NCBI GenBank assembly: GCA_944391565.1
Contig: CALXUB010000028.1
Location: 30,738 to 94,737 of the forward strand
Length of the DNA: 64,000 nucleotides
Direction: 5' to 3'
Source of the DNA: an uncultured Alphaproteobacteria bacterium
Lineage (GTDB): Bacteria; Pseudomonadota; Alphaproteobacteria; CAAHEQ01; UBA3637
Part shown: positions 51,813 through 64,000 of the stretch, piece by piece
Layout: each line of letters opens with the position of its first letter
Position numbering within the stretch: position 1 is the first letter of the stretch
Translations under genes and position numbers: made by a program
Notes under the pieces: model-generated
What the model was told of the DNA's origin: nothing
The model's input: the letters and a program-made list of their open reading frames with translations, nothing else
The model's database searches: none

Positions 51813-54236
51813 TTAATTAACGGCAACCGTTGTTTGTGGACCGGGTGCCTCACAAGGCGGTAAGTCGTTTGGCAAAGGGGTCAAAGGTTGGATTAAGGCC
51901 TTTTCCAAAACTTCGCGCACATAAGTGACAGGAATAATTTGAAGACCTTCTTTAACGTTGGCCGGTATTTCCTCCAAATCTTTGACATTTTCCGAGGGAA
52001 TCAGAACGGTTTTTAAACCGGCTCGCAGAGCTGCCAACAATTTTTCCTTTAACCCACCGATCGGCAGAACACGACCACGCAACGTAATTTCTCCCGTCAT
52101 GGCAATGTCTTTCCGAACCGGAATACCGGTCAGAGCGGAAACCAAAGACGTACACATGGTAATACCGGCTGACGGTCCGTCTTTCGGTGTGGCTCCTTCG
52201 GGAACATGAACATGAAGATCATTCTTTTCAAATAAAGAGGAGGGAATACCAAAAGCAACATGGTGCGAACGAATGTAAGAACGAGCTGCTTCCACAGATT
52301 CTTTCATTACATCTCCCAGCGATCCCGTTAAGATGATATTGCCTTTTCCGGGCATCGTGACTGCTTCGATGGATAGAATTTCCCCCCCCACTTCTGTCCA
52401 AGCTAAACCGGTTGTCACACCGACTTGGTCTTCCTGTTCCGCAACCCCGAAACTATAACGTGGCACACCGGCATATTTTGACAAGTTTTCTTTTGTCACT
52501 TCCACCGTTTTTTGTTCACCCATCATGATTTCTTTGACGGCTTTTCGCGTCAGATTGGCAATTTCACGCTCTAAGTTGCGCACACCTGCCTCACGCGTAT
52601 ATAAACGGATTAAATCGCGGATAGCATCTTCCGTCACTTTAAATTCTTTTTCGGTCAATCCGGCGGCTTTCATTTGTTTGGCAATCAAATGACGCTTTGC
52701 TATTTCGACTTTTTCGTCTTCTGTATAGCCGGATAATTGAATAATTTCCATTCGATCTAACAAAGGACGCGGCATTTTCAGCGTGTTAGCCGTTGTGACA
52801 AACATCACGTCGGATAAGTTATAATCAATCTCCAAATAATGGTCGTTGAAGGTTGCATTTTGTTCAGGATCCAGCACTTCCAGCAAAGCAGAAGAAGGAT
52901 CTCCGCGCCAGTCAGCTCCTAATTTATCAATTTCATCCAACAGGAACAATGTGTTTAGCGTTTTGGCTTTTTTCATGCCCTGAATAATTTTGCCGGGCAT
53001 GGAACCGATATAGGTACGTCTGTGTCCGCGGATTTCTGCTTCATCCCGCATGCCGCCTAATGAGGCGCGGACGAAATGTCGTCCTGTTGCTTTGGCAATA
53101 GACTGTCCCAAAGATGTCTTGCCGACACCCGGCGGACCGACCAAACATAGAATCGGACCCTTAATTCCGTTCGACTTCTTTTGAACAGCTAAATATTCAA
53201 TGATGCGTTCTTTGACTTTTTCCAAACCGTAATGATCTTTATCCAGGATTTCCTGAGCTTTTTTTAAATCAATTTGGTTTCGTCCCGGATGCTTCCACGG
53301 CAAAGATAAAATCCAATCTAAATAATTGCGAATGACACCGGCTTCGGCCGACATAGGACCCATCATGCGCAGTTTCCTGAGCTCTCCAAGGGCTTTTTCT
53401 TTTGCTTCTTTGGGCAAATGTGCTTTTTCAATTCTTTTTTGAAACTCAAGCAATTCACTGCCTTCTTCTTCATCTCCCAGCTCTTTTTGAATGGCTTTCA
53501 TCTGCTCATTCAGATAGTATTCTTTTTGACTTTTTTCCATTTGATGTTTCACGCGCTTGCGGATTTTCTTTTCAACTTGCAAGACGCTGATTTCCTTTTC
53601 CATGAAAGTAAACAATTCTTCCATGCGTTTCAAAAGGGATTTTGTTTCCAAAAGCTTTTGTTTGTCAGCAATTTTAAGCGTTAAATGAGATGAAACGGCA
53701 TCTGCCAACTTGGCCGGATCTTGTATTTGAGAAACGGCGACCCATGCTTCCGGCGGAATGCGTTTATTCAGGCTGACATATCGTTCAAATTGTCCCATAA
53801 TGGAACGGGTGAGGGCATCCAATTCTTCGGATGGTTCATCTTCATCTTTAACTTGTTCGGCACGAACTTCCATAAAAGGATCTTCTTGAATGAAGGCTTT
53901 AATTTCAGCTCGTTGTGTTCCTTCCACCAAGACTTTGACGGTTCCGTCCGGCAGACGAAGCAGCTGCAAAACGGTTGCCAGTGTTCCCAGTGTATTCATA
54001 TCTTCGGCTTTGGGATCATCCACGGTCGGATCTTTTTGCGTGACAAGCAAAATTTGCTTATTTTCGGACATAATGCTATCCAAAGCACGGACTGACTTTT
54101 CGCGGCCGACAAACAAAGGCACAACCATGTGCGGAAAGACAACAATATCTCGTAACGGCAACAGCGGATAAACATCCTTCGGTCCGTTGTCGGCAGGAAT
54201 AATATTTTCAAAGTTTTTTAAATCTTCTGACGGCAT
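51813..54236 (-). CDS. lon: ATP-dependent Lon protease
   Basis: 807 aa; Walker [10 protein letters not shown]; catalytic Ser context DGPSAG. Confidence 0.95.
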
Positions 54237-54238
54237 TT

Positions 54239-55534
54239 TTAACTCGCATTTTCTTGTTTTTCATCAGCGTAAACCAGCATCGGAGCAGCTTCGCCATTAA
54301 CAACTTTTTCATTGATGATGACACCTGTTAAATCTTTAATGGTTGACAAATCAAACATCAAATCCAACAACAGATTTTCCATGATAGAACGTAAGCCTCT
54401 GGCCCCTGTTTTGCGGTCAAGAGCTTTCTGTGCAATGGCTTTGCAGGCATCTTTCGTAAAAGTCAAATCAACATTTTCCATCTTAAAGAGGCTTTGATAT
54501 TGCTTGATAAGCGCATTTTTAGGTTCAGTTAAAATCTTAACCAAAGCCTTTTCATCCAAATCATCCAATGTTGCAATGACTGGCAAACGTCCCACAAACT
54601 CCGGAATAAGGCCAAACTTCAATAAATCTTCAGGTTCCAGTTGAGCCAAAAGTTCTCCGGTTGTCTTTTCATCTTTGTCATGAACGGTTGCGCCAAAGCC
54701 GATAGAGGATTTTTCGGTTCGACGTTCAATCATTTTTTCCAAACCGGCAAAAGCTCCGCCGCAAATAAAAAGAATATTGGACGTATCCACCTGAATAAAC
54801 TCTTGCTGCGGATGTTTACGTCCGCCCTGTGGTGGAACGGCTGCTACCGTTCCTTCCATTAGTTTTAAAAGAGCTTGTTGCACTCCTTCACCGGATACAT
54901 CACGTGTGATGGAGGGGCCATCGTTCTTACGAGAGATTTTATCTATTTCATCAATATAAACAATTCCTTTTTGAGCCTTTTCAACATTATAATTAGCCGC
55001 TTGCAGCAATTTCAAAATGATGTTCTCAACGTCTTCACCGACATAACCGGCTTCTGTCAAAGTTGTCGCATCGGCAATAGCAAAAGGAACATTCAGGATT
55101 TTAGCCAAAGTCCGTGCTAAATATGTTTTACCGCATCCTGTGGCACCGACCAATAAGATGTTGGATTTGTTGATTTCTACATCATCTTTCTTTTCACTTG
55201 AGAGGCGTTTATAATGATTGTAAACAGCAACGGAAAGAACTTTCTTGGCTTTTTCCTGTCCGATGACATATTGATCCAAAAAAGCTTTAATCTCATGAGG
55301 GGAGGTTAGTTTTAATTCATCATCACTCATCTCGGTTTTGGCATTAGAGGCTTCTTCCGCAATGATTTTAGCACATAAATCAACGCACTCGTCACAGATG
55401 AAAACCGTTTGACCTTGGCCTTCGCCCATGGAAAGCGTGCGTCCGGCAATCAACTTGCGAACTTCGTTCTGCGTTTTATTGCAAAAAGAACAAACGAGTG
55501 TGTTTTTGTTATTTTCGTGCGTTTTATCAGTCAT
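54239..55534 (-). CDS. clpX: ClpX ATPase subunit
   Basis: Zinc-finger CSFCNK...CDEC and GPTGCGKT. Confidence 0.95.
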
Positions 55535-55727
55535 TTCATTCCCTCTTTATCATAGATATGTATATATAGGAAGAGGGGGATCTTTTTGCAAGCCCCTTCT
55601 TTGGTCTGCCATCTTTTTGATATATGTCTGGCCATCCTGTCCTTATCTTGCCTAACTCATATTAAACTGATAACAGTTTATCTGCTTTCGGCTAAAAAGC
55701 AAGCAAAAAAGCAAACAATTTTAGGGA

Positions 55728-56348
55728 TTATTTTTCCGGTGTTCTTGTTGTAATGATTTCATCAATCAAGCCAAATTTTTTGGCATCCTCGGGCGTCATG
55801 AAGTTATCACGTTCCATGGCTTTTTCAACAACATCCAATGATTTTCCCGTTTGTTGGACGTAAATCTGATTTAATCGCGCTTTTAAATCCAAAATCTCTT
55901 TTGCATGAATTTCAATATCGGTCGCTTGTCCTTGAAATCCGCCGGACGGTTGATGAATCATGATGCGCGAATGAGGTAGTGCAAACCGTCTTCCTTTCGC
56001 ACCACAGCATAAGAGTAAGGAACCCATAGAAGCTGCTTGTCCCATGACAATCGTTGAAACAGGACATTTAATATAGTTCATGGTATCCATAATGGCCAAA
56101 CCGGAAGTGACAACACCGCCGGGGGAGTTGATATAAAAAGAAATTTCTTTTTTAGGATCTTCTGCCTCCAGGAACAAAAGCTGGGCGCAGATAAGGCTGG
56201 ATACATTATCTTCGACAGGTCCGGTCAAAAAGATAATTCGTTCTTTTAACAGACGCGAATAAATATCGAAAGCTCTTTCCCCGCGGCCGGTTTGTTCAAC
56301 AACCGTCGGAACCAGATATTCCATTTTCATTTGACCGAACTCTGTCAT
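55728..56348 (-). CDS. clpP: ClpP protease subunit
   Basis: Family blocks including [15 protein letters not shown] and GQAASMGS. Confidence 0.95.
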
Positions 56349-56360
56349 GTGATATGTCCT

Positions 56361-57713
56361 TTATTTGTTTTTCTTATTGTCTTTTGCATCCGGATCGTAG
56401 GCATACAATTCGGCAACCGTCAATTGTTTTTCATTGACTTTAATATTGTCTGCTACGAAGTCAATGACTTTTTCTTCAAAAAGCGGCGCACGCAGGGTAT
56501 CCAAAGCGCGTTCGTTTTTGGCATAGAAGTCAAAGACTTTTTGTTCTTGTCCCGGATAACGGCGAGCTTCAGCCATGATTGCCTTTGTTAAATCATCCTG
56601 TGACAGGGTGATTTTGTTCAAGTTTGCAATTTCGGCAAGCAGCAAGCCGAGTTTAACCCGACGTTCCGCAATACCTTTATATTCTTTTTTCAGATCTTCT
56701 TCTTTGGCGTTTTTCTCATCTTCATCCAGTTCGCCGCGGGCTTTAGCCGCTTCATACTGTTTCCAGATAGCGTCAAATTCCATATCGACCATGCTTTGCG
56801 GCGCTTCAAAATCGCACAAAGGAGCTAACGCATCCAAAATAGCGCGTTTCAAATGAATATGAGAGACATTCGCATATTCTTTAGCAAGCTCGTCTTTCAC
56901 CAATTCTTTTAATGCATCCAATGTATCTTTTCCGAATAACTTGGCAAAGTCATCGTTCATTTCAACATCTTTGACTTTACGCAATTCTTTGATATCTACA
57001 TCAAACAGAGCTTGTTTGCCTGCCAGTTCTTTAACATGATAATTGGCCGGAAAAGCAACGTTGACAAGGGTTTTTTCTCCGATTTTCTTGCCTGTCAGCT
57101 GATCTTCGAAACCTGGGATAAAGGTGTTGGAACCCAGTTCCAGGTAATAATCCTTGCCTTTTCCGCCTTTGAATTCTTTTCCGTCAATGGAGCCCACGAA
57201 GTCGATCACGATAATATCGCCGGTTTTTGTCGGGCGGTCTTCGTTTAAAACCTCTGTTTCGCGGCGGCTTTGAGCCAAACGTTTTAAGGCTTCGTCAATT
57301 TCTTTTTGGGTCACTTCAGCCGTTAATTTTTGGACTTCTACTTTTGTTAAGTCGACCGGTTTGATTTCCGGTAAAACTTCGGCTTCCACCGTGAATTCGA
57401 AATCTTTTCCGTCTTCAAAAGCGCCAATGTCCACTTTCGGTGTGTTGGCTGCTTTTAACTTATTTTCTTCAAAAGCCTGGCGAGAGCCTTGTTGAACCAA
57501 AGCTTCGGCGGCTTCGCCTTTTACGGCTTGACCATATTTTTGTTCAACGACATTCATCGGAACTTTGCCCGGACGGAACCCGGGAAGTTTGACTTTTGTC
57601 GCAATGTCTTGAAGCCTTTTTTGGACTTCAGCTTCGAATTCATCGGCGGGAACGACAACTTTAAATGTGTGTGTCAATCCTTTTTTATTTGTTTCAGTAA
57701 TTTTCATAGACAT
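56361..57713 (-). CDS. tig: Trigger factor
   Basis: 450 aa; family blocks. Confidence 0.9.
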   Translation of the reverse strand: MSMKITETNKKGLTHTFKVVVPADEFEAEVQKRLQDIATKVKLPGFRPGKVPMNVVEQKYGQAVKGEAAEALVQQGSRQAFEENKLKAANTPKVDIGAFEDGKDFEFTVEAEVLPEIKPVDLTKVEVQKLTAEVTQKEIDEALKRLAQSRRETEVLNEDRPTKTGDIIVIDFVGSIDGKEFKGGKGKDYYLELGSNTFIPGFEDQLTGKKIGEKTLVNVAFPANYHVKELAGKQALFDVDIKELRKVKDVEMNDDFAKLFGKDTLDALKELVKDELAKEYANVSHIHLKRAILDALAPLCDFEAPQSMVDMEFDAIWKQYEAAKARGELDEDEKNAKEEDLKKEYKGIAERRVKLGLLLAEIANLNKITLSQDDLTKAIMAEARRYPGQEQKVFDFYAKNERALDTLRAPLFEEKVIDFVADNIKVNEKQLTVAELYAYDPDAKDNKKNK

Positions 57714-57744
57714 ATCCTATCATTTTTTTAACGGTGTCCTTTTG

Positions 57745-57829
57745 TGGTGCGGGCGGAGGGACTTGAACCCCCATGAGTTTCCTCATCGGAACCTAAATCC
57801 GACGCGTCTACCAGTTTCGCCACGCCCGC
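57745..57829 (-). tRNA. tRNA-Leu (anticodon TAG)
   Basis: Reverse-complement cloverleaf with long variable arm and encoded CCA. Confidence 0.8.
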
Positions 57830-57975
57830 AAAACTCGGGACAGACAATCATAAAACAAATTGCAAAATAGACGAAAAGTCACGTTTTTGCAACTCTTTTT
57901 TACGCTTGAGGCTCATCTTGTCACAAAAAAAACGGAAAATCAAGCAGATTTCTTCATAAAAAAGGAACAAAGCAT

Positions 57976-58066
57976 GAAAAAAGGGAAAGCATAACTTTCC
58001 CTTCTCATTTTGTGGAATAATCCTTATTAACGGAAAGACCACACTCTTTTATCTGCTATAAAAGAT
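57976..58066 (-). ncRNA. Predicted tracrRNA: anti-repeat, AAUAAGG / AAAUGAGAA region and intrinsic terminator (GGGAAAGUUAUGCUUUCCC-U6)
   Basis: The + strand at 58027-58062 is 27/36 identical to the crRNA-sense repeat, so the minus strand pairs with it; minus-strand terminator hairpin at 58001-57983 plus T6; candidate -10 TATAAT on the minus strand at 58075-58070. Confidence 0.6.
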
Positions 58067-58137
58067 ACAATTATATTGCAATATTATCTAAACTCTGTCA
58101 ATATATTTTTTATTCTAATATGAAAAAAGAGGTCACT

Positions 58138-61100
58138 ATGAGCTATACGTTAGGATTGGACTTAGGAAATACATCTATCGGATGGGTACTTTTAAAAACA
58201 AACGATGCGGAAATAACGGGAATTGAAGCCATGGGCGTCCGTATTTTCCCGGATGGTCGTGAAGCTCAGTCTAAAGAGCCTTTAGCTGTCGCACGCAGGA
58301 TGGCCCGTTCGATGCGCCGTTCTTTGGACAGACGTCTGCTGCGTCAGGAAAAACTGATGCGCTTTTTGATTGAGAACGGCCTTTACCCTGCAAATGAAGC
58401 AGATAGTAAGAAATTGGTTCAATTAAATCCCTATGCCTGTCGTGATAAAGCTTCCCGTGAAGAAGTTAATCCTTTTGAAGTGGGGCGAGCATTATACCAT
58501 ATTTGTCTTCGTCGCGGTTTTCTCAGCAACAGAAAAACAGACAAAAAAGACAAAGAAAGCGGCAGCATGAAAACAGCCATTCATGTATTGGAAGAAAAAA
58601 TAGCTCAATCAGGAGCGCAAACGCTGGGGCAATATCTGTATTTGCTTCAGCTTCAGGATGATCATGCGCAGCTGCGTGTCAGTGCGCAGACGGCGGGAAC
58701 AAAAAACGTATACAATTTCTATCCCTCTCGAGCCATGTATGAGCGGGAGGTTGATCAAATTTTAATGCATCAATCATATTTGTCGGCGGCCCAGAAAAAT
58801 GAAATAAAAGAAATTATTTTCTATCAACGGCCCTTGAAAAAGCCTCAAGTTGGCTTTTGCACTTTAGAAGAAAAAGAACGTCGGGCGCCCAAATCCAGTA
58901 TTTTGTTTCAATATTTCAGGTTGTTGCAAAAACTGAATGATTTAGAATATGTTTTCTTGGATACAGGGGAATGTTTAACAGATGAAAACCGTCAAGTTAT
59001 TAAAGAAATGCTGTTGAAATCAAAAGAAGTTTCTTTTGAAACGATTCGTAAAAAATTAGGCGTTTCGTATCGTTTTTCGCATGAAGACGAAAAAACATCC
59101 AAACTGACGGGACATGAAATCAATGCGAAAATGAGTTCTAAAAAGGCTTTCGGATCTGCTTGGTTTGAACTGTCCGGACGGGAACAAGAACACCTTGTCA
59201 TGCTTTTGTCCAATCTGGAGAAAGAAGATGTTCTTGAAAAATATTTAAAACAGACTTATCCGGATTTAAGCGATGAGCAAGTCGAATATCTGCTAGGACT
59301 TTCTTTTCCAGAAGGATATGGCCATTTAAGTCGACGAGCAATGTTAAAAATAATTCCGTTTATGGAAAAAGGCTTATCTTATTATGATGCTTGTGAAGCG
59401 GCCGGTTATCACGAAACGGAACAGCCGCACGGAGAGCTGTTGCCTTATTATGGGGAGATTTTGTATAAAAAATTATTGGGCGGAAGTTTTAATCCATCCG
59501 ATCAAAATACACCGGAGCTTTATTATGGAAAAATTAATAATCCGACAGTTCATATCGGTCTGAACCAACTTCGTTTGCTTGTCAATGAACTAATAGCCCA
59601 ATATGGGAAGCCGACACAAATTGTGGTAGAACTGGCGCGTGAATTAAAGATGTCTCAAAAAGACTTGAATGAACTGAATCGAAGACAAACGGCCGATAGA
59701 AAGGAAAACGAGAAAATCAATCTTTTTCTGAAAGAACAAGGATTGCCTGAAAGCTATGAAAATCGAATGCGGTATAAATTGTGGACGGATTTGGCTGAAA
59801 ATCCCTTGGAGCGCTGTTGTCCTTTCTGCGGTCGCACAATCGGTGAAGGGGATATTTTCTCGCCGGCTTTTGAAACAGAACATTTACTGCCATTTTCTCG
59901 TTCATTTAATGACGGACGGAATAATAAGGTTTTAGCTTGTAAGGAATGCAATAACTTTAAGAAAAACCAAACACCTTGGGAGGCATTTCATACTCATGTG
60001 GGAGATAAATATGATTGGGAAAATATCTTGGCCCGCGTTTCAAAAATGAATAACAGAAAAGCATGGCATTTTACGAAAGAAGCTGCCGAAAGTTTGGATG
60101 AAAACACGGTCTTAAATCGTTTTTTGAATGATACAAAGTATTTGTCCAAAATGGCAAAAGCTTATTTGGAATATATTTGTCCGGTTCGAACAATTCCGGG
60201 ACAATTAACCTCTAAAATGCGCAAGATTTGGCAATTTAATGACTTGATCGGCGAAACGGATGAAAAAGATCGCACGGAGCATCGACATCATGCGATTGAT
60301 GCCTTAACGGTGGCATGCACGACACGCAGTACACTACAGGCTTTTTCAACACATTCAAAAGAAAGCTATGAACGACAGCATAAAATTTTGGCCGGCAGTT
60401 TAGTTCCTTTTAAGGCTTTTAATCGGGCAGAAATGAAACAACTTTTGGAAAATATGGTGATTTCCTATAAACCTAATCATAAAGATGCTCAAAAAGCTGT
60501 TTCCCAAGGCAAAACGGCAGGGGCTTTGCATGATGAAACAAACTACGGAAAAGTGATGCATTTAAACGATGACGGTTCTGTTGAAAGCCGCTATGTGGTT
60601 CGAAAGCCGCTAATCAGTTTAATTGAAGATAAAAATATTGAAGAAATCGGTGATCGAAAAATCCGTCATGAACTGCAGACATTGCTTGCCGGCAAAAGTA
60701 AAGAGGAACGTAAAAAATTATTGGAGGCCTACAGCGAGGAAAAGAATATCAGAACGGTTCGCGTCCATATCATTAAAAAAGATGATGCTATGATCGGCAT
60801 TTGTCGGAAGGGACAGGAAAAACCCTATCGTTATGTCGCCAGCGGTAATAATTATTGTATGGATATTTATTGTCCGAATCGAGGGAAAAATAAAGGGGTT
60901 TGGTGTGGAGAAGTCATCTCTAATTATGAGGCTCATCAAAAAGGTTTCCAGCCTCAGTGGCGGCAAAAAGAGCCGGAGGCAAAACTGATTATGCGTCTGT
61001 TTATCGACGATATGGTCGCATATGAGGAAAACGGACAAACGGAAATCCGACGCGTGAAAAAAATGGATAAAAGTGTTAAAGTTTATCTGCGTTCTCATTT

Positions 61101-61227
61101 GATAGCAGCAGAAGAAGCAGATAAATTATCTTGGGCAGCTTCTCCGCGACAGCTTCAGTTAAAAAATGCCCGGAAAATAAAAGTTGATGTTTTGGGACGG
61201 GTTTTTGACCCGAAAAGTTCCAAATGA
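58138..61227 (+). CDS. cas9: Cas9, type II-C, about 1029 aa (ORF track begins at 58120; the ATG at 58138 has an AAGAGG RBS)
   Basis: RuvC-I LGLDLGNTSIGW; Arg-rich bridge helix RRMARSMRRSLDRRLLRQ; HNH ETEHLLPFSRSFNDGRNNKVLACKECNNFKKNQTP; RuvC-III HHAIDAL. Confidence 0.92.
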   Translation: MSYTLGLDLGNTSIGWVLLKTNDAEITGIEAMGVRIFPDGREAQSKEPLAVARRMARSMRRSLDRRLLRQEKLMRFLIENGLYPANEADSKKLVQLNPYACRDKASREEVNPFEVGRALYHICLRRGFLSNRKTDKKDKESGSMKTAIHVLEEKIAQSGAQTLGQYLYLLQLQDDHAQLRVSAQTAGTKNVYNFYPSRAMYEREVDQILMHQSYLSAAQKNEIKEIIFYQRPLKKPQVGFCTLEEKERRAPKSSILFQYFRLLQKLNDLEYVFLDTGECLTDENRQVIKEMLLKSKEVSFETIRKKLGVSYRFSHEDEKTSKLTGHEINAKMSSKKAFGSAWFELSGREQEHLVMLLSNLEKEDVLEKYLKQTYPDLSDEQVEYLLGLSFPEGYGHLSRRAMLKIIPFMEKGLSYYDACEAAGYHETEQPHGELLPYYGEILYKKLLGGSFNPSDQNTPELYYGKINNPTVHIGLNQLRLLVNELIAQYGKPTQIVVELARELKMSQKDLNELNRRQTADRKENEKINLFLKEQGLPESYENRMRYKLWTDLAENPLERCCPFCGRTIGEGDIFSPAFETEHLLPFSRSFNDGRNNKVLACKECNNFKKNQTPWEAFHTHVGDKYDWENILARVSKMNNRKAWHFTKEAAESLDENTVLNRFLNDTKYLSKMAKAYLEYICPVRTIPGQLTSKMRKIWQFNDLIGETDEKDRTEHRHHAIDALTVACTTRSTLQAFSTHSKESYERQHKILAGSLVPFKAFNRAEMKQLLENMVISYKPNHKDAQKAVSQGKTAGALHDETNYGKVMHLNDDGSVESRYVVRKPLISLIEDKNIEEIGDRKIRHELQTLLAGKSKEERKKLLEAYSEEKNIRTVRVHIIKKDDAMIGICRKGQEKPYRYVASGNNYCMDIYCPNRGKNKGVWCGEVISNYEAHQKGFQPQWRQKEPEAKLIMRLFIDDMVAYEENGQTEIRRVKKMDKSVKVYLRSHLIAAEEADKLSWAASPRQLQLKNARKIKVDVLGRVFDPKSSK

Positions 61228-62150
61228 CCGGACAGATTTTGGAAATAGCAACAGATAATAAGCATTTGTCCGCCAAAGACGGATTTATCGTCATTTCGGA
61301 AGGACAGGTCGAGTTGGGCCGTATTCCGATTGACGCCGTTGAAGCCGTAGTTGTTTCTGCGCATGGCATCACTTACAGTCATTCTTTTTTGGTGCGCTTG
61401 TCAGAGAATAACATTCCGTTTGTGGCTTGCAATCAAAAGCACTTTCCCGTTTCTTATCTGCTTCCTTTAGAGGGACATTATAAGCAAGGCTCTGTGATGG
61501 ATGCTCAGCTTCAAGCAAATCTACCGCTTAATAAAAGGTTGTGGCGAGACTTAGTGAAAGCAAAAATTGCTATGCAAATCAGCGTTTTAACACATTATCA
61601 GAAGCCTGTGCAACGTTTAGAGTATTTATTGAAATCCGTCAAATCGGATGATAGTGAAAATGCAGAAGGTCAGGCAGCCCGTTTTTACTTTCAAGCATTG
61701 TTCGGAGACAATTTTATACGCGATCGTGAGGCGGATGGTATCAATGCCATGCTCAATTACGGATATACGGTTCTGAGGGCCTTTATCGCGCGTTATTCGA
61801 CGGCTGCCGGTTTGCATCCGACAATGGGGATTCATCATCGGAACGCTTTGAACGGATTTCGCTTAGCCGACGATTTGATGGAACCTTTTCGGCCGATTGT
61901 TGACTTTGCTGTTTATGAGATGATAACAAAGGGAGAAACGGCACTGACTTCAACCGTGAAGCAAAGCTTGGTTAATGTATTTTCAGGAAATATACCCGCT
62001 TTTTTGGGACAAACTCAAATAACAATCTGTATGCAGAATCTGTGTATTTCTTTGGCTAAAGTATATTTAAAAGAACGGGAGGAACTTGATTTGCCATATT
62101 CACCGCAACCATGGGATTGGGAGGCTTTAAATGCCTTCATCGCCGTATAA
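61224..62150 (+). CDS. cas1: Cas1
   Basis: 308 aa; overlaps the cas9 stop (ATGA); position. Confidence 0.85.
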   Translation: MTGQILEIATDNKHLSAKDGFIVISEGQVELGRIPIDAVEAVVVSAHGITYSHSFLVRLSENNIPFVACNQKHFPVSYLLPLEGHYKQGSVMDAQLQANLPLNKRLWRDLVKAKIAMQISVLTHYQKPVQRLEYLLKSVKSDDSENAEGQAARFYFQALFGDNFIRDREADGINAMLNYGYTVLRAFIARYSTAAGLHPTMGIHHRNALNGFRLADDLMEPFRPIVDFAVYEMITKGETALTSTVKQSLVNVFSGNIPAFLGQTQITICMQNLCISLAKVYLKEREELDLPYSPQPWDWEALNAFIAV

Positions 62151-62460
62151 TCAAATGTGGATGATGGTTATGTTTGATTTGCCGGTCGGAACGGCAAAAG
62201 AGCGTAAAAAAGCCACGGCTTTTCGAAAGGGACTCTTGGATCTTGGCTTCGAAATGTCACAATTTTCAGTTTATGTACGTTTTTGCGGCGACAGGCAGAA
62301 AACAGAACCTTATGTTCGAAAAATTAAGACGTTAATTCCGGAAAATGGGAGCGTCACGTTATTATTTTTTACGGATCGACAATTCTCCGATATTATTAAC
62401 TTTTCGAATCGAAAACGTAAAAAATTAAAGGAAAATCCGGCTCAGTTATCTCTGTTCTAG
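62131..62460 (+). CDS. cas2: Cas2
   Basis: 109 aa; overlaps cas1; MWMMVMFDLP start typical of Cas2. Confidence 0.85.
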   Translation: MPSSPYNQMWMMVMFDLPVGTAKERKKATAFRKGLLDLGFEMSQFSVYVRFCGDRQKTEPYVRKIKTLIPENGSVTLLFFTDRQFSDIINFSNRKRKKLKENPAQLSLF

Positions 62461-62468
62461 AGAGCTTT

Positions 62469-62497
62469 TGGGAGGATATTTTCTTATATCCTCCTTT
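62469..62497 (+). terminator. Rho-independent terminator after cas2 (GGGAGGATAT-TTTCTT-ATATCCTCC-TTTT)
   Basis: Read directly. Confidence 0.65.
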
Positions 62498-62521
62498 TAA
62501 AACAACGACTTAACTCAGTGA

Positions 62522-63020
62522 GATTATAGCAGATTAAAGAGTATGGTCAAGCCGTAACAATTCGTTGTCTACATAATTTTTTACTTCTATTATAGCAGAT
62601 TAAAGAGTATGGTCAAGCCGTAACACTATAATTTCAAAGTATTGGGATTTTGCTATTATAGCAGATTAAAGAGTATGGTCAAGCCGTAACTTATCAATGT
62701 GTTTATTTACATCAACATTAATTATAGCAGATTAAAGAGTATGGTCAAGCCGTAACTTGTTTATCCCTGTTGTTATATAGCTTTTTATTATAGCAGATTA
62801 AAGAGTATGGTCAAGCCGTAACATCACCTAAAATAATATTGAAAGCTTTTTTATTATAGCAGATTAAAGAGTATGGTCAAGCCGTAACTTTTCAAAACCG
62901 TCAAATTCAAGCCGAGAAATTATAGCAGATTAAAGAGTATGGTCAAGCCGCAACGCAACACGCGAGATCATTGACATCGTACAGATTATAGCAGATGAAG
63001 GAATATCTTGTTGACGAAAG
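62522..63020 (-). CRISPR. CRISPR array: 36-bp repeat (+ strand ATTATAGCAGATTAAAGAGTATGGTCAAGCCGTAAC), 7 spacers of 30-31 bp, repeat 7 variant (GCCGCAAC), degenerate 8th repeat at 62985. The crRNA-sense repeat is the reverse complement and ends in an extended -10 TGCTATAAT.
   Basis: Repeat starts 62522, 62589, 62655, 62721, 62787, 62853, 62919, 62985 counted directly. Confidence 0.95.
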
Positions 63021-63040
63021 CTGATTTTTCCTGTAAAATC
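63011..63040 (+). promoter_or_regulatory. Sigma70-like promoter TTGACG-N17-TAAAAT overlapping the degenerate terminal repeat
   Basis: Read directly. Confidence 0.4.
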
Positions 63041-63059
63041 AAAGCCAAAAGAAAAAACA

Positions 63060-63326
63060 ATGAAACAAAAAACGCCAAAAACCATTTTAAAAGAATACAA
63101 AGAAGCATATAATGCCCTTTTGGATCAAGTGTTGGAGATATCGGCTTTTGTGCTTTTTTGGCCTTTCTTTTATCTCTTTATCGAAACGGATATAACGGTC
63201 TTTAAAGCATTTCTGTATTACTTTCTGTCCTCCGTTTTTTCAGCTTTTTTCATCATGAAAATAATTGAATATTTCGTTTTAAAAAATGCTCTTAAAAGTG
63301 TTTCTGGTTTAAATAAAAGACTGTAA
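63060..63326 (+). CDS. Small membrane protein (88 aa), hypothetical
   Basis: Two hydrophobic helices. Confidence 0.35.
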   Translation: MKQKTPKTILKEYKEAYNALLDQVLEISAFVLFWPFFYLFIETDITVFKAFLYYFLSSVFSAFFIMKIIEYFVLKNALKSVSGLNKRL

Positions 63327-63412
63327 ACAAGGCTTCTGTTTTATATTCTTTTTATGAAAACACTGGACTTTTAGGGCGCAATCGGTTATGAAAAGAGCAA
63401 AAGGGAAAAAAG

Positions 63413-64000
63413 ATGACTTACGATAAACAAGATATTATTACAAAAAGGCGCACTTTCGCGATTATTTCTCACCCGGATGCCGGTAAAACAACTTTGACCG
63501 AAAAGCTGTTGTTGTTCGGTGGTGCGATTGCTATGGCCGGGGCTGTTAAAGCAAAGCGAGAACAACGTGCGGCGCATTCGGATTGGATGAAAGTGGAACA
63601 AGAGCGCGGTATTTCAGTGGCATCTTCTGTTATGACGTTTGATTATGCCGGTTGTACGTTTAATCTTTTGGATACGCCGGGACATGAAGACTTTTCGGAA
63701 GATACTTATCGTGTTTTAACGGCGGTCGATAGTGCGGTGATGGTGATTGACTGTGCAAAGGGGATTGAGGCTCAAACATTGAAATTGTTTGAAGTTTGTC
63801 GTCTTCGGGATATTCCGATTATTACCTTTATCAATAAATTGGACAGGGAAGGACAAGATTCGTTTGCTTTGTTGGAAGAAATCGAGCAGTCTTTGGCATT
63901 GGATGTTTGTCCGGCCAGTTGGCCTATTGGTATGGGACGTTCTTTTAAAGGCTGCTATGACTTATTGAATGATCGATTGAATTTAATTGATCGTTCTGCG
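63413..64000 (+). CDS. prfC: Peptide chain release factor 3 (N-terminal part; continues beyond the window)
   Basis: [19 protein letters not shown]1 motif and DTPGHEDF; RBS before the ATG at 63413. Confidence 0.85.

Follow-up and report, generated by a model that had tools for sequence, protein, structure and literature searches.

Introduction

Which RNA provides the scaffold for the Cas9 encoded at the end of this stretch of DNA, and from which strand is it read? The stretch comprises 64,000 nucleotides (nt) of contig CALXUB010000028.1 from an uncultured Alphaproteobacteria bacterium (hereafter, the window), and its end holds a compact type II-C locus of CRISPR repeats and CRISPR-associated (cas) genes, made up of the minimal cas9-cas1-cas2 set and an array. 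Trans-activating CRISPR RNAs (tracrRNAs) are small RNAs that pair with CRISPR RNAs and bring them into Cas9. In types II-A and II-C they are mostly encoded upstream of cas9 (PMC3737331), and large covariance-model catalogues of Cas9 tracrRNAs have already been published (bioRxiv 10.1101/2020.09.02.279885). An earlier note on this DNA had read the minus strand as encoding a tracrRNA that diverges from cas9 and pairs with minus-strand CRISPR RNAs (crRNAs). That proposal is now backed by the anatomy of the sequence, comparative genomics, covariation and an independent covariance model. We put the probability that positions 57977-58066 of the minus strand encode the tracrRNA of the adjacent type II-C CRISPR-Cas9 system at roughly 0.93. 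The observations that carry this reading are the sequence anatomy of the element, its uniqueness in the window, its conserved position and strand, its covariation with the repeat, and its membership of a conserved RNA family.

Results

The tracrRNA candidate sits 75 nt upstream of cas9. Set against the reverse complement of the array repeat (GTTACGGCTTGACCATACTCTTTAATCTGCTATAAT), nucleotides 58027-58062 of the plus strand (TTAACGGAAAGACCACACTCTTTTATCTGCTATAAA) agree at 28 of 36. The earlier note had recognized this 36-nt repeat-like stretch, which is indeed present and far above chance, and had put its identity at 75%; the value is 78%. The runner-up among repeat-like sites outside the array, with both orientations searched, reaches 22/36. 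The predicted duplex between repeat and anti-repeat has an energy of -41.6 kcal/mol (z = -8.9, against a background of -10.05 +/- 3.54 kcal/mol for 42,228 window segments outside the array), which makes it the top site outside the array, and the next independent site reaches -27.6 kcal/mol. A better anti-repeat, which the earlier note had named as grounds for giving up the assignment, was not found in the 64-kb window.

The duplex that had been aligned by eye, long and with an internal region of mismatches or bulges, was recovered by the computed fold as a 3x3 internal loop plus one A.A mismatch. In the lower stem, crRNA UUACGG faces tracrRNA CCGUUAA with two mismatches; the internal loop sets crRNA CUU against tracrRNA UUU; and the upper stem runs for about 25 base pairs (bp), with the A.A mismatch and one G.U pair. 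The pyrimidine loop (tracrRNA 58034-58036 against repeat positions 8-10) is kept in 13/13 aligned loci, and the pairs flanking it covary. Given that it is unpaired in every locus, it is a conserved feature and not decay. Cas9 probably recognizes it, in a way comparable to the bulge of type II-A guides, and it and the CACAAAAUGA linker probably mark Cas9 contacts.

One other match to the repeat was seen nearby. Positions 57521-57536 of the plus strand, inside the trigger factor gene (tig, minus strand), match positions 2-17 of the crRNA-sense repeat exactly over 16 nt (TTACGGCTTGACCATA), and the trigger factor mRNA would thus hold a perfect 16-nt complement to the crRNA repeats. The site is the second best in the window (-27.6 kcal/mol), and about 6e-4 such matches would be expected by chance. 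It was rejected as a rival anti-repeat: it comes without a scaffold, lies in codons for a conserved YGQAVK, and is not preserved in L081, a related locus with the same gene order (relatives are numbered L001-L088). The last two points indicate that the match is probably a coincidence.

Immediately 3' of the anti-repeat, the minus strand reads a UAAUAAGG junction followed by a 3-bp nexus hairpin (GGA-UUAU-UCC). AAUAAGG lies at 58028-58022 and AAAUGAGAA at 58010-58002. In relatives, the nexus columns form stems of 2-5 bp with compensatory changes (GCGUC/GAUGC, GUGUC/GACAC, GAAUC/GAUUC and GAACG/CGUUC). The terminator is a 7-bp G+C-rich hairpin (-15.7 kcal/mol, z = -5.16 versus shuffles) whose stem covaries, with 7/7 pairs changed on both sides among relatives, and its U-run is present on the minus strand only. 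The prediction of a clean terminator hairpin with U6 near 57976 was accurate; the U-run ends at 57977, and the covariance model described below delimits 57976-58062. The free tracrRNA folds with z = -5.45, and a 103-nt single guide RNA (sgRNA) design folds as intended into lower stem, loop, upper stem, nexus and terminator. The sgRNA joins the guide to GUUACGGCUUGACCAUACUCUUUA-GAAA-UAAAAGAGUGUGGUCUUUCCGUUAAUAAGGAUUAUUCCACAAAAUGAGAAGGGAAAGUUAUGCUUUCCCUUUUUU.

In the predicted fold of the free tracrRNA, UGUGG in the anti-repeat's 3' half is paired to the CCACA of nexus and linker (58012-58043, minus strand). This GUGUGG/CCACA fold-back recurs in most relatives, but its registers shift, and it was not adopted as a conserved structure. 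The tracrRNA may sequester itself in this way before crRNA binding, or the fold-back may be a by-product of base composition.

We then asked how far this arrangement extends among related Cas9 loci. The homologues were graded in identity to the window's Cas9 (99, 79, 66, 65, 53, 52 and 51%, then many at 40-48%); a scan of a genome collection with the Cas9 alignment gave none closer than 46%, and the closer relatives were fetched protein by protein, most of their contigs stopping at the first repeat. In 15/15 loci with Cas9s 43-99% identical, the best match to the repeat of that locus is on the strand opposite cas9, 58-226 nt upstream of the gene. After it come a UCUUUCC-GUUAAYAAG junction, a nexus hairpin, CACAAAAUGARA and a hairpin rich in G+C with its U-run. 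The same held for 39 of 44 more distant loci (Cas9 32-46% identical), in which the best anti-repeat lies 57-311 nt upstream of cas9, again on the opposite strand. In L081-L083 the tracrRNA is nearly identical to that of the window while the flanking intergenic DNA differs, and in L082 and L083 the neighbouring genes differ as well, RNase HII replacing trigger factor and tRNA-Leu. Sequence conservation ends at the U-tract.

Covariation was measured by joining each locus's repeat to its tracrRNA in the manner of an sgRNA and aligning 13 such loci. Across duplex and nexus, 91.3% of cells are paired, compared with 39-49% when the partners are slid by 1-3 columns, counts that are inflated by the choice of each anti-repeat for its likeness to its own repeat. 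Nineteen pairs are changed on both sides, against 5-8 in the slid controls, and 0/500 shuffles reach the observed values for pairing and covariation. For the covariance model described next, the structure was supplied by hand, as RNAalifold on a MAFFT alignment of the tracrRNAs gave a poor consensus because the terminator stems fall into three registers. In the alignment fitted to the covariance model (A4), the nexus and terminator are 88% paired versus 45-58% when slid, with pair counts that lean towards the structure of that model.

The covariance model itself, R1, was built from 11 loci with Cas9s 43-53% identical, with the window and its close relatives excluded. In the window, R1 finds one strong, full-length match (84.8 bits, E 1e-15), which covers 57976-58062 of the minus strand; the second-ranked match scores 20.8 bits, and the weak matches include array repeats. 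Over 89 sources R1 gave 49 matches, 49/49 of them on the strand opposite cas9, and some in loci whose fetched DNA did not include the array. These matches end no more than about 320 nt upstream of cas9 except in L069 (445 nt) and L028 (758 nt before the start of the cas9 match).

Several points weigh against the assignment. The whole case is drawn from sequence, and the search for a better anti-repeat covered 64 kb of the genome. The bias that the selection of anti-repeats brings to the pairing counts is offset by the constant position, which is the independent part of the covariation evidence, and by the independent covariance model. A search of 57000-64000 against Rfam at permissive thresholds passed only the tRNA-Leu and no tracrRNA family, the best overlap with the candidate being sraA at chance level (24.2 bits, where the gathering score is 56). 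A generic, stricter sigma-70 scan of 57600-58400 called no promoter and gave the hairpin on the plus strand only, despite the T-run of the minus strand; we therefore relied on conservation.

The conserved promoter elements bear on where the RNA begins. All promoter assignments here are made at the level of consensus. TTGACA-N17-CAAnnT stands at a fixed distance from the anti-repeat in 12/16 close loci, and a TTGAC(A/T) -35 box also occurs in several distant loci. From the TTGACA-N17-CAATAT geometry, the tracrRNA is predicted to start near 58066, the boundary that the earlier note had drawn. A real tracrRNA with other ends or isoforms has a small but appreciable chance of being the better description: a longer form from an upstream promoter, read-through to the T-run at 57953-57958, or a start cleaved by RNase III inside the anti-repeat. 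In Streptococcus pyogenes, several tracrRNA forms, one of them long, arise from two promoters and processing (PMC5965381); here, a TATAAT 3 nt downstream of the proposed -10 box would shift the start to about 58063, and a second T-run follows the terminator. The spacing of the promoter boxes, however, fixes the start within a few nt in 12 loci, and conservation stops at the U-tract.

We infer transcription, the exact RNA ends, processing and Cas9 loading of the tracrRNA from established type II biology. The RNA would start near 58066 and end after the hairpin and U6 at 57977, giving about 90 nt. Its 5' 36 nt would pair with the repeat part of minus-strand crRNAs through a lower stem of 7 positions, the conserved pyrimidine loop and the upper stem. 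The distal duplex would probably be trimmed by RNase III, and Cas9 would hold the scaffold formed by the UAAUAAGG junction, the nexus hairpin, the CACAAAAUGAGAA linker and the terminator hairpin.

We also considered that the stretch could be a decayed orphan repeat, left in the cas9 promoter region by an old array or a repeat duplication and giving no functional RNA. The idea has some grounding, in that degenerate repeats have been viewed as the source of tracrRNA anti-repeats (PMC3737331). A promoter, nexus, linker and terminator would not persist with a mere remnant, nor would a remnant change in concert with the repeat among loci with Cas9s as little as 43% identical, and the degenerate repeat at 62985-63020 illustrates what true decay looks like at this locus. 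We regard this explanation as very improbable.

The polarity of the tracrRNA also sets the reading direction of the array. The anti-repeat lies 5' of the scaffold hairpins, and a U-run follows the terminator, on the minus strand only; we therefore infer that the array gives crRNAs from its minus strand, antisense to the cas9-cas1-cas2 genes. It is scarcely credible that the functional RNA is instead read from the plus strand, with the array read in the cas9 direction and the plus copy of 58027-58062 serving as anti-repeat, possibly in the cas9 5' leader: such a duplex would be nearly as good (-38.2 kcal/mol, so that duplex energy alone cannot separate the strands), the degenerate repeat lies at the cas-distal end, where the usual rule would suggest plus-strand transcription, and the scan tool placed its hairpin on that strand, but the hairpins would then precede the anti-repeat with no U-run after it, the wrong polarity for a Cas9 scaffold, and the T6 run, the conserved -35 and -10 boxes, the covariance-model match and the TGCTATAAT box of every repeat are all on the minus strand.

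TGCTATAAT, a perfect extended -10 box, is found on the minus strand in 7/7 repeats and in the degenerate repeat. In Neisseria meningitidis and Campylobacter jejuni, repeat-embedded promoters start crRNAs inside the spacers, and the array runs opposite to the cas genes (PMC3737331; PMC5965381; PMC12477760). By analogy with Neisseria, the crRNAs of the window are probably read from the TGCTATAAT box in each repeat. With that box closing each repeat, crRNAs are predicted to start 6-7 nt into each 30-nt spacer, with guides of about 24 nt (PMC12477760).

The degenerate repeat keeps its TGCTATAAT end and has lost the half that pairs with the tracrRNA, its duplex reaching -19.3 kcal/mol versus -41.6 kcal/mol for the consensus repeat. 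Mutations of such an "extra repeat" in II-C arrays have been proposed to suppress extraneous crRNA (Feussner et al. 2025, PMC12080349). The repeat of the window resembles those described there, which are the oldest repeats of their arrays, at the transcriptionally upstream end, with mutations in the part that pairs with the tracrRNA inside Cas9; nothing notable differs, and it is a textbook case. A protospacer search with the whole array (seven spacers) against 50,697 phage records gave no match.

The start region of cas9 lies just past the candidate tracrRNA promoter. The earlier note had suggested that TATAAA on the plus strand (58057-58062) may double as the cas9 promoter. The suggestion is poorly supported: the box lacks the critical last T, and its counterparts decay in relatives (TATGGT, TATACC, TAGACA and TATGAG), the repeats keeping TATAAT. 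For these two reasons, it is a weaker candidate than 58076-58104. There, the two blocks of the candidate tracrRNA promoter, read on the plus strand, give TTGCAA/TTGCCA-N17-CAAnAT, from which cas9 transcription would start at about 58111, before the ribosome-binding site. In 12 loci the two blocks are conserved and are separated by 14 variable nt.

The candidate promoters of tracrRNA and cas9 overlap at 58073-58104 with dyad symmetry. Such a pair is found in the window and in L081-L085, L087, L003-L005, L032 and L038, and is absent from more distant, G+C-rich loci. We tentatively suggest, as a possibility below even odds, that in this low-GC subclade one dyad-symmetric, fully overlapping divergent promoter pair drives both genes, the -35 box of one being the -10 region of the other (TTGACA-N14-TGnCAAnAT against TTGCCA-N14-TGTCAAnAT). 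In the tracrRNA -10 box, the CAA at -12 to -10 is invariant although it departs from the consensus, and it is precisely the sequence that the TTG of an opposite -35 box requires. RNA polymerase, or a dimeric regulator bound to the inverted repeat, could then take up only one of the two orientations at any moment, and the mirrored promoters, if real, would link or balance the production of Cas9 and of its scaffold RNA. The inverted repeat could equally be an operator for a dimeric regulator. A literature search on a shared bidirectional promoter for tracrRNA and cas9 found nothing relevant.

Table 1. Features of the type II-C locus and its surroundings (window coordinates)
Feature	Position	Strand	Details
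Predicted tracrRNA, ~90 nt	57977-58066	-	A at 58066 (predicted start) to U6 end; covariance model, fold, promoter geometry
Anti-repeat UUUAUAGCAGAUAAAAGAGUGUGGUCUUUCCGUUAA	58027-58062	-	upper stem 58038-58061, UUU loop strand 58034-58036, lower stem 58028-58033
UAA junction and nexus-like hairpin	58014-58026	-	GGA 58023-58021, loop UUAU, UCC 58016-58014; -2.8 kcal/mol
Single-stranded linker ACAAAAUGAGAA, conserved	58002-58013	-	CACAAAAUGARA nearly invariant in alignments A2 and A3
Intrinsic terminator	57977-58001	-	GGGAAAG 58001-57995, loop UUAUG, CUUUCCC 57989-57983, U6 57982-57977
Candidate tracrRNA promoter	58073-58101	-	-35 TTGACA 58101-58096, 17-nt spacer, -10 CAATAT 58078-58073; consensus match
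Candidate cas9 promoter mirroring the tracrRNA promoter	58076-58104	+	-35 TTGCAA 58076-58081, 17-nt spacer, -10 CAATAT 58099-58104; putative
cas9 ribosome-binding site AAGAGG	58127-58132	+
cas9, type II-C, 1029 amino acids	58138-61227	+	Pfam RuvC_III, HNH_4, Cas9_a
cas1	61224-62150	+	Pfam Cas_Cas1
cas2	62131-62460	+	Pfam CRISPR_Cas2
CRISPR array	62523-62954	- (reading strand)	7 repeats of 36 nt, 30-nt spacers; each repeat ends in TGCTATAAT
Degenerate "extra" repeat	62985-63020	-	transcriptionally upstream array end; 25/36 identity
tRNA-Leu, upstream of the CRISPR-Cas locus	57745-57829	-
Trigger factor (tig)	56361-57713	-	Pfam

The longest cas9 open reading frame (ORF) begins at ATG 58120. The ATG at 58138 is favoured as the start because the homologues are 1029 amino acids long and AAGAGG precedes it. 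Among solved structures, the closest to the cas9 product are compact Cas9s of 1082-1095 residues (9ar4, 8jtj, 8uza and 6jdq), a set that we take to include the Neisseria (Nme) and Geobacillus Cas9s. Beyond trigger factor, the minus strand has three ORFs whose sizes would suit clpP, clpX and lon, with identities taken from the gene order in L081 and L088.

The cassette of tracrRNA, cas9, cas1, cas2 and array adjoins trigger factor and tRNA-Leu in the window, L081 and L088. In L082 and L083 (1-4000, compared with window 54000-58000), it adjoins genes for RNase HII and an N6-methyltransferase. The similarity of these two loci to the window begins directly past the tracrRNA terminator, and we therefore conclude that the cassette moved as a unit.

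Discussion

The tracrRNA at 57977-58066 is a standard component in the standard place for this clade of Cas9s and introduces no new principle. Where it lies, how it is oriented, how its duplex is built and the presence of promoters within the repeats are all as the rules known for type II-C would have it. With it, the annotation of what looks like an intact type II-C system is complete for an uncultured, low-GC bacterium, and the practical return is the set of sequences from which the guide RNA of a compact 1029-amino-acid Cas9 can be reconstructed. By-products of modest value are model R1, with which the tracrRNA can be located in 49 loci of the clade, the conserved pyrimidine loop and CACAAAAUGA linker, and the candidate mirrored promoter.

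The II-C system of N. meningitidis (Nme) is one of the closest known systems. It shares the minimal cas9-cas1-cas2 operon, a compact Cas9, 36-nt repeats with an extended -10-like box at their end (TGCTACAAT in Nme, TGCTATAAT here), and a duplex built of lower stem, internal loop and upper stem. Unlike Nme, which has two larger stem-loops after the junction, the window has a 3-bp nexus, the CACAAAAUGARA linker and a single terminator hairpin, and no sequence homology extends past AAUAAGG. In Nme, moreover, the tracrRNA gene lies elsewhere in its locus. As in Neisseria and Campylobacter (PMC3737331), the array of the window would be read opposite to the cas operon.

Two short motifs had been taken in the earlier note as echoes of the N. 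meningitidis tracrRNA, and they fared differently. The first echo is sound, as AAUAAGG directly follows the anti-repeat in both systems; the Nme sgRNA carries CAAUAAGG at the junction of anti-repeat and first stem-loop, the same position as here (PMC9674691). AAAUGAGAA is present in both but is not homologous. The Nme sgRNA contains ...CGAAAUGAGAACCGUUGCUACAAUAAGGCCGUC... (PMC9674691), in which AAAUGAGAA is part of the anti-repeat and pairs with crRNA UUCUCAUUU, whereas in the window it falls in the linker downstream of the nexus, a conserved element of this family (CACAAAAUGARA); given these different settings, the echo is coincidental.

The founding example of a tracrRNA is that of S. pyogenes, type II-A. 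Its system is alike in having its tracrRNA upstream of cas9 on the opposite strand (PMC5965381), in an anti-repeat that pairs with pre-crRNA repeats, in an AAUAAGG-type junction into the nexus, and in an end formed by an intrinsic terminator. It differs in having csn2 and a leader-driven array that runs in the cas direction. No Rfam family, including any from streptococcal tracrRNAs, matches the window.

A close likeness is found within the proteobacterial II-C clade represented by L001-L088 (metagenome-assembled Alphaproteobacteria, Parvibaculaceae, Nitrosomonas, Novosphingobium, Azospirillum and others), which shares the same layout, with the array after cas2 and the tracrRNA divergent from, and just upstream of, cas9 in the loci that R1 fits. 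Shared features are a UCUUUCC loop strand, a GUUAAYAAG junction, a nexus, the CACAAAAUGA linker and a terminator; variation is confined to the core of the anti-repeat, the loop of the nexus and the stem of the terminator, and goes in step with each locus's own repeat. Few or no differences separate the tracrRNA of the window from those of L081-L083 and L088. Two of the related II-C loci, L084 and L087, come from the same metagenome-assembled genome (GCA_965314975.1), with Cas9s 53% and 51% identical to that of the window. Their repeats and matching anti-repeats differ from each other, which suggests two co-resident, possibly orthogonal Cas9 systems.

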